Counted from the first letter of the stretch, positions 43,581 to 48,523 are shown. The stretch: 64,000 nucleotides of DNA from Candidatus Latescibacterota bacterium (GCA_965204375.1 OZ241986.1:5056001-5120000); one strand, 5' to 3'. Made by a program: numbers and translations. Notes: generated from the sequence alone by a model not told the origin.

Positions 43581-43835
43581 GCGGAACATATCTTTCAAAA
43601 TATCGCTCATTCATCGCTCAAAATATACACTCTCACCGCCAACGCTTGCACTCTTCCATCCCGCTTCAACAGGCGATCCATAAATTCAAGTTGTAAACAA
43701 GACCGCAATACTGCATATTGAGGGTATAATGAGATGCCTGAACTTCTCTTGAGCCTTTTTATCACTCAATTTTGTGATAATCGCATTTTTGGCCTGATAT
43801 TTGCTTGGGTTCTGACTGTTGTGTGTGTCCAAAAA
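43580..43835 (+). promoter_or_regulatory. Conserved non-coding leader, copy B
   Basis: Homologous to 23963-24190; begins at the stop codon of the upstream gene. Confidence 0.75.
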
Positions 43836-43882
43836 ACGGACAGCCCGGTTTGGACGTATAGCATATAACAAAAGGAGAATGC

Positions 43883-44098
43883 ATGAACGAAGTTACAGAA
43901 TTGAGAGGCAGGCAAACCGAACACGCGGAACGTCTGATCAAGTTGGAAACACTTATTGAGCGATATGACAAAGACCAGCGGGATTTTGTGAAACGTTATG
44001 AACAAGACCAGCGAGAAGCGCGAAGCTGGCAAAAGTGGACTGTCACCCTCATGTGCGGCAGTTGGATTACGCTCATGGCGGCTATCTTGTTGAAGTAA
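43883..44098 (+). CDS. Small coiled-coil protein with C-terminal membrane anchor, copy 1 (71 aa)
   Basis: RBS AAAGGAG; RYxxDQR repeats; TM WTVTLMCGSWITLMAAILLK. Confidence 0.8.
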   Translation: MNEVTELRGRQTEHAERLIKLETLIERYDKDQRDFVKRYEQDQREARSWQKWTVTLMCGSWITLMAAILLK

Positions 44099-44109
44099 AA
44101 GGAGAATGT

Positions 44110-44346
44110 GTGAACGAAACTACAGAATTGAGAGACCGGCAAAGCCAACACGCGGAACGGCTGATCAGATTGGAAACGCTAATTGAGCAGAACCAGGAAC
44201 GTGTGAACCGTTATGAGGAAGACCAGAGGTCTTTTGTAAGCCGTTATGAGGAAGACCAGCGGGAAGCGCGAAGCTGGCAAAAGTGGACTGTCACCCTTAT
44301 GTGCGGGAGTTGGATTACCCTTATGGCGGCTATTTTGTTGAAGTAA
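44110..44346 (+). CDS. Small coiled-coil protein with C-terminal membrane anchor, copy 2 (78 aa, GTG start)
   Basis: Same RBS; identical C-terminus with synonymous differences; 7 aa longer. Confidence 0.8.
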   Translation: MNETTELRDRQSQHAERLIRLETLIEQNQERVNRYEEDQRSFVSRYEEDQREARSWQKWTVTLMCGSWITLMAAILLK

Positions 44347-44361
44347 AGGACCACAGCGGAG

Positions 44362-44417
44362 AAAAAAGAAACGCCCCTTTCGGGGCGTCGAGCCAACGAT
44401 ACTATCGTTGGGGTGGT
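44362..44417 (-). ncRNA. Putative ~56-nt small RNA divergent from the NYN gene
   Basis: Own promoter, hairpin built on the CCAACGATA/TATCGTTGG inverted repeat, then ACGCCCC-GAAA-GGGGCGT and UUCUUUUUU. Confidence 0.6.
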
Positions 44418-44423
44418 AAAAGA

Positions 44424-44451
44424 AATCTACCTAAATATGTTATTTTGTCAA
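44424..44451 (-). promoter_or_regulatory. Sigma70 promoter for the sRNA
   Basis: TTGACA (44451-44446)-16 nt-TAGATT (44429-44424). Confidence 0.6.
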
Positions 44452-44532
44452 GAAAGAATTTCTGTACACCTATGTGTAATTTCGTAATAAAAAAATACCT
44501 TATGTCCCATATTAGACAGGGAGAATCCATTG

Positions 44533-45150
44533 ATGCAGCGCGTATTGGTGTACGTTGATGGGTTCAATCTCTACTACGGCCTCAGATCCAAAGGCTGGCG
44601 GCGCTACTATTGGCTCGACATATATCGTCTGGCAGAGAAACTGCTACGCCCCGACCAGAGTTTGGTAGCTGTCAGGTATTTTACCGCCAGATTGCACAAG
44701 GCAACCGAGCCAGAGAAACAAGAGCGGCAGAAAATCTACCTGGAGGCATTGACTACACTCTCAGACCTATACATCCATTACGGATACTACATCCAGAAAG
44801 ACATGACCTGTCGGAAATGTAGCGCGACCTGGAAAACCTATGAGGAAAAGATGACCGACGTGAATATCGCGGTCGAATTTCTCGGCGACGCTCAAGATGA
44901 TGTCTTTGACACGGCAATCATCATCTCTGGCGACAGTGACCTGACTCGCCCTGTAATCTCTTTCCACAAACGCTATCCGGAAAAACGGGTGGTTATTGCA
45001 TTCCCACCGAGGCGTGTTTCTAAACATTTGCGTAATGTAGCGACTGCATATTTTACCATAGGCCGCAAGAAACTCAGTGACAGTCAGTTACCTGACCAGA
45101 TTACCAAAACCGATGGGTATATCCTTAGCAAGCCCTCAAAGTGGCGTTGA
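44533..45150 (+). CDS. NYN (LabA/DUF88, PIN-like) ribonuclease domain protein
   Basis: YVDGFNLYYG, CRKC, EEKMTDVNIA, ISGDSDL, VVIAFPP. Confidence 0.92.
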   Translation: MQRVLVYVDGFNLYYGLRSKGWRRYYWLDIYRLAEKLLRPDQSLVAVRYFTARLHKATEPEKQERQKIYLEALTTLSDLYIHYGYYIQKDMTCRKCSATWKTYEEKMTDVNIAVEFLGDAQDDVFDTAIIISGDSDLTRPVISFHKRYPEKRVVIAFPPRRVSKHLRNVATAYFTIGRKKLSDSQLPDQITKTDGYILSKPSKWR

Positions 45151-45254
45151 GTATCTTGAATAAGCGCGTCGATTTTCTTAAACGTGCTTTTGCTGGTCTG
45201 ATACCAATAGAGATAATTTTTCCAAGCACCGGCATGGAAACTGATGTTTCTCAT
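45084..45254 (-). pseudogene. yoeB: Truncated YoeB/Txe toxin
   Basis: MRNISFHAGAWKNYLYWYQTSKSTFKKIDALIQDTQRHFEG, then runs antisense into the NYN gene; the C-terminal half is missing. Confidence 0.8.
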
Positions 45255-46876: not shown

Positions 46877-48523
46877 TTACACTCCAAATGCTTTTCCAAA
46901 AGTCCCAATCAATTCTTCGCTACGGCCAGTCCCTCGCAAATACTCCTGCAACAAGGGGTGAATGTGATCATCCCAAATTTGTTTACGAACCTCAGAGATC
47001 GATAAACTGGTCGGATATTTCAGATTCATCAAATAAGCGTGACCGATTTGATAATCAGATCCAAGCAACGCTTCGTTCTCGATTTGCACATTCAGATTTT
47101 CAAGATTATCGGCTAATTCAGCCCATTTCTTATGATGTTCATTGAGGTCGTATTTAAGCAATGTATAATCTGGCGTTATCTCTTCCCATCTAAACCTTCT
47201 ACGAAGAGCCAGATCAAAGCTTTCAACACTCCGGTCAATGGTATTCATAGTTCCGATCAGGTAAACATTGGATGGAATAAAAAATTTGTATCCCTCACTT
47301 TTATCACGAAACATGCCTGTCTTCGGGTCATTCAAGTTGGCATATTGAGTTGTGATACGTCCTTTTACGCCGCGATATTCCAGGCAGTACATCAATTCAC
47401 CAAATACACGGGATAGCTCCGCTCTGTTGATTTCATCAATGATAAAAAAGAACGGCGGCACCGCATCAGCTACACGCCTGGAGGAATCCTGAAATTTTAA
47501 AATATGCTCCCAATGAGGGGCTGTGAGTTTGTCTTTATACCGGTCAAGCTCTTCGATAGTGAGTTTCTCCCAATCCGTACCAATCCCAAGTTTATGTACA
47601 TCGATTTCCCATTTACCCGCTCTTCGACAGAACTCCTTGAACACGCCATTTTGTAGCCTCAGTTGAGCCTCACCATTATGATCTAAGATAGGACGCAACC
47701 CTTCCATAAAATCCTCATAACCAAATGAGGGATGAAACTGAACGACCTCTCTTTGTGTGTCAATTTTGTACCGGTTACTATCCGGCGCAAACTCATCTTT
47801 CCAATTAGTGAAATACGATTTTGTTTGCTGAAGGGCTAAATATGTTTTGCCAGTACCCGGAGGACCGTATTTGACAACTTGTTTATTCAGTTTGAATGGA
47901 TTGGATAAATTCTCGTATAGTCCCCAAACGAACATACTCAAGTAAAACTCATCTGTTTCCCCATTGTTAAGCTTATCTTGAAACTCTTCTTTAAATTTGG
48001 AAAGCAAAAATTGATTTTTCGCAAACCAACTCTGGTCTTGATCCGCAGGATAGGAAGAGATTATGTCTTCTCTAATTAGCCAATTGAAGACCTGCTCAAA
48101 TTTACTGGCATCAGCAGTCGTAGATACGTCTCGAGTGCATGCTGCAGCCACTCGATTCACCAGAACAGGATTGTTCCCTCTCCTTTGAGCTTTCCATACA
48201 TTCTCGAACTTCTCGAACGATTCTTGAGTTGGAGAAACGATAAACTCACTGAGCGTTGATAAGAAATCATTATTACTTATAAATGCTTGAAAATTATCTT
48301 TACTCAAGACAGATTGACCACTATTAGCGATTCCATTGCTTTGTTTTCGTAATAATCTATCAAGAAATTCTTCGTCATTTTTATCCAGTTCTTGACCATT
48401 TTGAATACGCCGTCGCACTTCTTCTACTTCATCACAAAATTCCTTACAGGAGTCACGCCAGCGTTGCCATTGGTGTTTATGGTTATCAACAAGATCTTTA
48501 TAAAGATTCTTAAGCCTGCTCAC
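46877..48523 (-). CDS. mcrB: McrB family AAA+ GTPase
   Basis: GPPGTGKT, QFHPSFGYEDF, IIDEINRAE, GTMNTIDRS, ALRRRF, IGHAY. Confidence 0.93.
   Translation of the reverse strand: MSRLKNLYKDLVDNHKHQWQRWRDSCKEFCDEVEEVRRRIQNGQELDKNDEEFLDRLLRKQSNGIANSGQSVLSKDNFQAFISNNDFLSTLSEFIVSPTQESFEKFENVWKAQRRGNNPVLVNRVAAACTRDVSTTADASKFEQVFNWLIREDIISSYPADQDQSWFAKNQFLLSKFKEEFQDKLNNGETDEFYLSMFVWGLYENLSNPFKLNKQVVKYGPPGTGKTYLALQQTKSYFTNWKDEFAPDSNRYKIDTQREVVQFHPSFGYEDFMEGLRPILDHNGEAQLRLQNGVFKEFCRRAGKWEIDVHKLGIGTDWEKLTIEELDRYKDKLTAPHWEHILKFQDSSRRVADAVPPFFFIIDEINRAELSRVFGELMYCLEYRGVKGRITTQYANLNDPKTGMFRDKSEGYKFFIPSNVYLIGTMNTIDRSVESFDLALRRRFRWEEITPDYTLLKYDLNEHHKKWAELADNLENLNVQIENEALLGSDYQIGHAYLMNLKYPTSLSISEVRKQIWDDHIHPLLQEYLRGTGRSEELIGTFGKAFGV

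Follow-up and report, generated by a model that had tools for sequence, protein, structure and literature searches.

A predicted NYN ribonuclease gene of the candidate defence family HEC-09 and a conserved small-RNA gene, usually divergent from it, in Candidatus Latescibacterota and other bacteria

The 64,000-nucleotide stretch of a Candidatus Latescibacterota genome considered here (GCA_965204375.1, OZ241986.1:5056001-5120000; hereafter the window, with positions counted from its first letter) carries, between 44362 and 45150, a gene for a protein with a NYN nuclease domain and, divergently oriented beside it, a predicted small non-coding RNA of about 56 nucleotides (nt). A preliminary description, drawn from the sequence alone, had proposed that the RNA serves as a decoy or antitoxin for the nuclease. 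Judged by comparison with other genomes, this module is a predicted NYN ribonuclease together with a dedicated ~56-nt RNA that has its own strong promoter and terminator and is usually divergent from the nuclease gene. On this comparative evidence, both the RNA gene and its pairing with NYN are very nearly certain to be real.

The RNA unit occupies the minus strand. A consensus scan places a -35 hexamer, TTGACA, at 44446..44451 and a -10 hexamer, TAGATT, 16 nt from it at 44424..44429; the predicted start is the A at 44417, seven bases past the -10, and the U-run ends at 44362, so that the RNA (44362..44417), whose two ends were inferred from the positions of promoter and terminator, would be 56 nt long. 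It contains no open reading frame (ORF) and is supported by its fold, a covariance-model match and conserved columns. From 5' to 3' it consists of a tail (ACCACCCC), a hairpin P1, a 3-nt linker, a second hairpin P2, which is the terminator, and the U-run. P1 (44393..44411, minus strand), identified by compensatory changes, is a 9+1+9 inverted repeat of 19 nt that reads CCAACGATAGTATCGTTGG in the RNA sense (44411-44393) and has the conserved apex GAUAGUAUC (family consensus GAUAGYAUC). P2 (44370..44389, minus strand), identified by the scan and by compensatory changes, reads GACGCCCC-GAAA-GGGGCGTT (44389-44370), followed by TCTTTTTTCT, and has the conserved base GACGC...GCGUU; as a G+C-rich hairpin preceding a U-run on the transcribed strand, it is an intrinsic (Rho-independent) terminator, and the T-run exists on the minus strand only. 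The promoter, the start, the length and both hairpins thus stand as they had been drawn in the preliminary description.

The minus strand folds into exactly P1 and P2 (-25.2 kcal/mol, z = -4.5), and none of 200 shuffles folds as well. The consensus scans by themselves do not exceed chance: they found 2 sites of each kind, where shuffles give 3.9 +/- 2.4 promoter-like and 3.5 +/- 2.1 terminator-like sites. It is the comparison with other genomes that carries the case for the RNA unit. A covariance model matches the unit at 86 bits, its sole match in the 6.34-Mb genome, and the window contains this one unit and no repeat array. Neither the stretch 44362-44451 (at E up to 10) nor 19 loci carrying the unit (at E up to 0.1) matched any Rfam 15 covariance model. 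The RNA promoter is overlapped by a 42-amino-acid (aa) minus-strand ORF (44402-44530). In Logan contigs of sponge and coral metatranscriptomes the element is covered in three of four runs (X9, X20, X21), with a 66-nt contig identical to 44361-44425 in X20 and contigs that also span most of the NYN gene in X9; since these contigs carry no ends, strand or level and the libraries may contain DNA, they are neutral on transcription.

The gene on the opposite strand (44530..45150, plus) opens at a TTG at 44530, with the ATG at 44533 as the likelier start. Its product matches the PADLOC profile of the candidate defence gene HEC-09 (PDLC04163) over the entire profile (1-203/203, E 1.6e-91) and, as its sole Pfam match, the NYN family PF01936 above the curated cut-off (E 6.2e-14). 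The acidic motifs to which the preliminary description had drawn attention, DGFN, (E)EKMTD and SGDSD, are all present. An AlphaFold2 model built with 32 sequences (pLDDT 95.3) had its best Foldseek matches, spanning E 2.6e-10 to 8e-5, in VPA0982 (2qip, E 2.6e-10) and in MARF1 NYN domains; a sequence search of solved structures returned one weak NYN match (2qip, E 0.0012), and the other rows (E 0.13-1) were rejected as chance. Residues D10, E106, D135 and D137 and the cysteines C94 and C97, the latter two borne on an inserted hairpin of the HEC-09 clade, are kept in 76-81 of 81 homologues. Because these acidic residues and cysteines are conserved on a NYN fold, the protein is likely to be an active nuclease, and profile matches and the structural model assign it to the predicted NYN-fold (PIN-like), metal-dependent ribonucleases of the candidate defence family HEC-09. 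The protein is not embedded in an Hma (helicase, methylase, ATPase) system, its neighbours being two small ORFs and McrC/McrB-like genes; such embedding is how the family was found and not a property of the protein itself. The same genome has, outside the window, a second family of NYN paralogues with open frames of 221-248 aa (G000:C1:4845097-4845699 and 5048936-5049589, the latter ~7 kb before the window start), which match the HEC-09 alignment at E ~1e-30, occur in several genomes of the genus and have no RNA-model match.

Within the genus, searched at the DNA level in 40 relatives, the 100-nt segment with the RNA unit is conserved beside NYN homologues in other contexts (G013, G017, G015, G006), and the unit also occurs at sites without NYN. 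A gap relative to one relative, G016, gives the extent of the module: at G016:C1:40950-41916 the match jumps from query position 751 to 1640 (query position being the window coordinate minus 43599), so that this genome keeps the small ORFs but is without 44351..45238 (no strand assigned), and RNA and NYN behave as a single insertion. Upstream of ten NYN genes (64-99% protein identity), the minus-sense layout is identical every time: TTGACA, 17 nt, a TAnnnT hexamer, ~7 nt, ACC(A/C)CCCC, P1, P2 and a T-run. TTGAC is invariant in 17 of 17 units, and the counterparts of the -10 in homologous units are TATTAT, TATCAT or TATAAT at the same position. P1 changes in pairs (CCAACG/CGTTGG, CCAGCG/CGCTGG or CCAGTG/CACTGG) and P2 differs in length; in a MAFFT alignment of the 17 units, 97.0% of cells are paired, three pairs are changed on both sides, and the covariation score is reached by none of 500 shuffles. 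Units may form tandem arrays of two to four, each (~100-200 nt) with its own promoter and terminator; G011 has three 5' of NYN, and in G006, G001 and G019 units flank NYN on both sides.

Beyond the genus, the NYN alignment, run against species-representative genomes, yielded 570 relatives, of which the best 80 (43-65% identity) were taken as loci; these are the closest relatives and not a random sample. They span more than 10 phyla, and the phyla named in their record titles include Chloroflexota, Proteobacteria, Planctomycetota, Bacteroidota, Ignavibacteriota, Acidobacteriota, Actinobacteriota, Verrucomicrobiota and Deinococcota. A covariance model trained on the 17 genus units finds 80 matches at E <= 0.001 in these loci, and in 70 of the 80 loci a match lies at most 300 nt upstream of NYN (67 divergent from it, 3 co-oriented); the preliminary description had asked whether a divergent promoter and a covarying two-hairpin RNA recur beside homologues, and the answer is positive. 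The co-oriented loci, in which the order is promoter-RNA-terminator-NYN, are L064, L091 and L103, the NYN gene of L064 having a stop at codon 27. Two loci have downstream-only copies and one a copy 1.35 kb away; among the seven without a model match, three contain diverged units recognizable by eye (L096, L101, L097) and one (L095) is cut by a contig end. From the -35 to the NYN start the median distance is 36 nt (range 10-232). The varied position and orientation of the unit fit an RNA that acts in trans. Two loci carry several complete units each: four lie downstream of NYN at L036 2165-2574 (Dehalococcoidia), where an apparent decayed unit also stands upstream, and three lie upstream at L027 1467-1972 with a ~200-nt period.

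When the 80 units are fitted to the model, 97.6% of cells are paired (slid controls, 28-52%), 15 of 16 base pairs show compensatory changes (P1 8/8, P2 7/8), and double-change cells number 191 against 48.3 +/- 6.5 in shuffles, a value that 0 of 500 shuffles reach. Fitting an alignment to a structure biases these figures favourably; given how large the effect is, and that MAFFT independently agrees, this is of little concern. Because G.U cells greatly exceed A.C cells (109 vs 7), the structure is selected on the strand of the promoter and the U-run, i.e., the minus strand of the window. Letters that are near-invariant occur in unpaired and paired parts alike: the tail A-C-(C/A)-N-C-N-C, the P1 apex GAUAGYAUC, the linker N-C-C and the P2 base GACGC...GCGU(U/C)UCU; this suggests recognition by a protein. 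Taken with the genomic distribution, these patterns identify a real RNA gene that is selected on its RNA-sense strand and is a near-universal neighbour of this NYN clade across phyla.

The promoters, as read from sequence, fit the host lineage while the RNA sequence stays constant. A sigma-70-type promoter (score >=9/12) precedes 41 of 80 units, and at the right distance 16 of the 22 units from Bacteroidota, Ignavibacteriota, Chlorobiota and allied loci, but only 1 of the 58 others, have instead TAnnTTTG, which we take to be the -7 motif of Bacteroidetes promoters. At least seven T occur in the last 12 nt of 78 of the 80 units. The RNA promoter is strong and that of NYN is not recognizable: in 44 loci, plus-strand -10 hexamers show no positional peak between the RNA start and the NYN start, so that the NYN message may start inside or beyond the RNA gene.

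Co-occurrence of the two genes is one-sided. In five complete chromosomes from different lineages, all nine RNA matches genome-wide abut a strong NYN match, and all six strong NYN matches (E < 1e-70) have the RNA, whereas six weaker paralogues have none. The order is represented by 53 genomes, in which each of the 17 full or near-full NYN genes (E <= 1e-60) lies within 200 nt of an RNA unit (i.e., intact NYN without RNA, 0 of 17), and the 52 RNA matches divide into 22 beside a full or near-full NYN, 6 beside a broken or truncated one and 24 with no NYN within 1 kb. Orphan units of the genus retain their promoters and lie at sites where relatives have NYN. In these genomes, a nuclease that is always found with the RNA, and an RNA that is often found without the nuclease, constitute the asymmetry typical of toxin and antitoxin.

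Broken NYN genes beside an intact RNA occur at L064 1501-1578, L069 1501-1692, G032:C37:85289-85900, L019 and L028, through early stops, an internal deletion or a split gene. In a neighbouring genus (g6), an orphan RNA variant sits at one syntenic site in at least seven genomes (L116-L118, L123, L124, L126, L127), with two tandem copies in L116, flanked by what we take from their sequence to be a GntR-like gene and modB/modC-like genes. The RNA part of this orphan is nearly identical among species, its flanks are not conserved, and its promoter part is drifting.

Phage genomes carry the RNA as well. A search with a pattern written from the conserved letters retrieved 58 viral contigs; all 58 elements, which are 40 distinct sequences over the alignment columns shown, were confirmed by a second covariance model at E <= 0.0016. 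NYN is absent from 57 of the contigs, none of which shows an N-terminal NYN motif near the RNA, and L168 alone holds a NYN gene. In 17 of 26 inspected viral loci a co-directional ORF ends at or inside the promoter columns of the model, and in these 17, as annotated from sequence, a phage message ends in the element, which is not a separate gene. Its phage neighbours include genes for a baseplate hub, wedge subunit, tail sheath, ribonucleotide reductase and homing endonuclease. On three low-G+C phage contigs the element is immediately followed by a homing-endonuclease-like gene, which matches phrog_314 in one (L135 1638-2438) and has a similar N-terminus in the two others (L174, L161).

When phage collections were queried by BLAST with one of the phage-borne RNA copies, only Thermus phage phiLo was returned; since RNAs this short are beyond the reach of BLAST, this match is no count of the cultured phages that carry the RNA. 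The phiLo unit (68.7 bits, TTGACA-17-TATAAT) lies in an unannotated gap, and over 66 nt it is 95.5% identical to the unit of Thermus oshimai JL-2 plasmid pTHEOS01, where the RNA is divergent beside an annotated 'NYN domain-containing protein' (55% identical to that of the window) that also adjoins a gene annotated 'helicase-related protein'. The stretch shared by phage and plasmid (189 nt, 96.8% identity) comprises the RNA unit, the ribosome-binding site of NYN and the first 22 NYN codons, beyond which the phage diverges; the -10 is TTTAAT in pTHEOS01 vs TATAAT in phiLo. Only 3 of 50,697 phage records match the NYN protein of the window, and phiLo is not among them.

In the window itself, the module lies in an island flanked by two enolase-superfamily (MR_MLE) genes. 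The McrBC neighbour noted in the preliminary description is there: McrC-like and McrB-like genes follow 3' of NYN on the minus strand, and the McrB-like protein (46877-48523, minus) matches NCBIfam McrB in its C-terminal part only (residues 358-529), plus AAA_5, with no family match in its N-terminal ~200 residues. On the other side of the RNA are two tandem paralogous small ORFs (43883-44098 and 44110-44346, plus; 71 and 78 aa; 86-88% DNA identity), present in one to three copies in relatives, with a coiled-coil-like front, a hydrophobic end and no family in Pfam, NCBIfam or PADLOC. No plus-strand terminator separates them from NYN. They were considered as a protein antitoxin and rejected, since they accompany the RNA unit only in this genus and are absent in the other phyla inspected. 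Farther upstream, 43600-43838 is a dispersed ~240-bp repeat that matches its own genome 25 times and recurs many times in all genomes of the genus; it folds no better than shuffles (z = -0.17).

The nearest described relative of the nuclease is HEC-09 itself, a PADLOC candidate defence gene that was described as a single gene and whose MARF1-like fold has already been reported (Payne et al., bioRxiv 10.1101/2024.01.29.577857). The window protein resembles it in its end-to-end profile match, its MARF1-like NYN fold and its surroundings of defence genes, and differs in having a conserved RNA partner and in standing beside McrBC-like genes and not inside Hma. The accessible text of the preprint does not mention ncRNA, sRNA, non-coding, noncoding or intergenic (10.1101/2024.01.29.577857). 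Literature searches for both HEC-09 and NYN returned only that preprint, and those for NYN with type III or small-RNA systems gave no NYN paper among the matches listed. Neither Rfam nor these searches yielded a counterpart of the RNA, in agreement with the earlier remark that no described NYN system with a small RNA was known. The best structural matches, NYN domains of the MARF1/VPA0982 type (6fdl, 5yaa, 2qip), share the conserved acidic active-site residues, although identity is 10-21% and the inserted C94/C97 hairpin is a feature of the HEC-09 clade; no RNA partner gene for these three turned up among the results.

Among systems that pair a protein with an RNA, the type III families ToxIN, CptIN and TenpIN likewise combine a ribonuclease with a small non-coding RNA, a terminator that sets the RNA end and an RNA gene that can be multiplied (PMC5086642, as far as its accessible text goes), and the ToxIN-like order of promoter, RNA, terminator and toxin gene recurs here in 3 of 70 loci. 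Phage-borne copies of the RNA recall pseudo-ToxI, and phages are reported to escape ToxIN by means of an RNA mimic (accessible part of PMC3475682). However, the toxin fold here is NYN and not ToxN/AbiQ-like; the RNA is an autonomous unit with its own promoter and terminator, whereas the type III RNA is a repeat array cut from a precursor; and in 67 of 70 loci the two genes diverge, whereas type III systems form one operon with one promoter. By these sequence characters, the pair falls outside the ToxIN, CptIN and TenpIN families, so that the original label of 'type III-like' holds for how the system may work and fails for family membership. AvcID is a second point of comparison. AvcI, a single non-repeat small RNA that inhibits a defence enzyme (a feature proposed here by analogy), is labile, outnumbers the toxin message and disappears once transcription is halted, which activates AvcD (PMC10511110, accessible part). 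AvcD, however, is a deoxycytidylate deaminase with no sequence or fold relation to the NYN/RNA pair, and AvcI is described in the accessible part of that source as ~170-280 nt long with no terminator between avcI and avcD (PMC10511110), as opposed to ~56 nt and a terminator of its own here.

How, then, might the RNA act on the nuclease? By sequence pattern and by analogy with these systems, we think it somewhat more probable than the contrary that the RNA inhibits NYN in the manner of a type III antitoxin and that phages copy the RNA as a decoy. Under such a mechanism, the RNA would bind NYN through its 5' tail A-C-(C/A)-N-C-N-C, the P1 apex GAUAGYAUC and the P2 base GACGC, and would keep the nuclease inactive while bound, as a type III antitoxin does. 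It would be made in excess and, as we assume from the type III analogy, would be unstable enough to fall after transcription stops. A phage that shuts off host transcription would then cause the RNA pool to drop, whereupon NYN would cut RNA and infection would be aborted; phages could respond by carrying the RNA alone as a decoy, either under its own promoter or at the 3' end of their own messages. The one-sided dependence of NYN on the RNA, the extra RNA copies, the strong RNA promoter set against no recognizable NYN promoter, the small number of promoter-RNA-terminator-NYN loci and the NYN-less phage copies all fit an RNA that restrains the nuclease and is copied by phages to disarm it.

Part of this evidence could be read in other ways. 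Co-occurrence and sequence conservation would also fit if the RNA were a required partner (i.e., a scaffold, activator or specificity element in a NYN ribonucleoprotein), or if the phage element were the target of NYN and the host copy tuned or sponged the enzyme; the element stands at the 3' end of phage genes, where NYN could recognize it, and HEC-09 was neither toxic nor protective in its published test, so far as the accessible text of the preprint reports (10.1101/2024.01.29.577857). An RNA that activates NYN or serves as its target, however, is one that we would expect phages to lose and not to gain, and in phiLo the RNA persists, behind a consensus promoter, whereas NYN has been lost. 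The combination of common orphan RNAs with the lack of intact NYN genes without RNA in the order (0 of 17) is the pattern of a protective partner, and an RNA whose sequence is constant across phyla offers no variable guide for a specificity element; we consider these roles unlikely, but less so than the alternatives that follow.

Regulation of NYN in cis or by base pairing (antisense, promoter interference or a shield against read-through), for which SymR/SymE is a type I-like antisense example, is suggested by the short gap between the -35 and the NYN start (median 36 nt), by the lack of a conserved plus-strand -10 in 44 loci, such that the NYN message may start inside or beyond the RNA gene, and by the small ORFs upstream in the window without a plus-strand terminator. 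An antisense pair, however, needs no conserved sequence, yet many letters of this RNA are near-invariant across phyla; between the RNA and the NYN start region there is no excess of complementarity (mean z = -0.17, with 1 of 63 loci below -2), in a test that covered the start region, beyond which a 5' leader of the NYN message may still overlap the RNA. Units elsewhere (3 co-oriented, 2 downstream-only, 24 orphans and 57 viral contigs without NYN) likewise speak against such regulation, and we consider it quite improbable. That the RNA has no function as such, and that mobile genes merely take along a terminator cassette, an insulator cassette or a DNA site, could explain why many phage copies stand where a terminator is expected and why the consensus scan alone is at chance level; but a mere terminator has no need of a lineage-matched promoter directly before it, or of the conservation of tail, P1 apex and P2 base, and would not be expected beside NYN in 9 of 9 genome-wide matches in five chromosomes, while a DNA site would not show a strand-specific G.U bias. 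We regard this last explanation as very improbable. An integron attC-like site, raised by the units on both sides of NYN in G006, G001 and G019, was rejected by the same G.U bias and by the promoters.

Other observations weigh against an inhibitory RNA antitoxin or against the breadth of the pattern on which it is founded. HEC-09 gave no protection against the phages tried in what is, by the accessible text of the preprint, its only published test (10.1101/2024.01.29.577857), in which the constructs contained ~150 bp of upstream sequence and an added T5/lac promoter. The metatranscriptome contigs give no direct evidence of transcription. The terminator hairpin looks stable and by itself gives no hint of a labile RNA, and the RNA is a single unit and not a repeat array cut out by the toxin. 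Three of the 80 NYN loci (L048, L085, L115) show no unit, either to the model or by eye, and the 80, besides being chosen non-randomly, include related genomes that are not independent. Most phage copies are promoterless terminators at gene ends (17 of 26 inspected) and can be read as a plain terminator family, and the genus-wide syntenic orphan of g6 could mean that the RNA has a role of its own.

A broader reading, to which sequence comparison and analogy point and which we hold tentatively and regard on the whole as somewhat doubtful, is that HEC-09 would be a pan-phylum abortive-infection system consisting of a NYN ribonuclease and an RNA antitoxin, and would constitute a new class of protein-RNA toxin-antitoxin. 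As part of it, phages would have acquired the antitoxin RNA in repeated captures and used it as a decoy against defence, mostly wired to the 3' ends of their own messages, and phiLo and the Thermus oshimai plasmid would present such a capture caught almost in the act. It would further hold that the P1 apex, taken as a 7-nt loop AUAGYAU, resembles an anticodon loop, and that the apex could be a pseudo-substrate in the active site, the real targets being tRNA-like loops.

The partnership itself turns a published 'single-gene' defence candidate, which had failed its only test, into a two-part system, and it adds a new RNA family that is well supported, shows strong covariation and occurs in phages as well as in more than 10 phyla. 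Should the RNA prove to be an inhibitor, RNA-antitoxin systems would come to include a further nuclease fold and a gene layout new to them, and a cultured phage and a cultured host genus would provide a natural example of phages stealing an RNA antitoxin.

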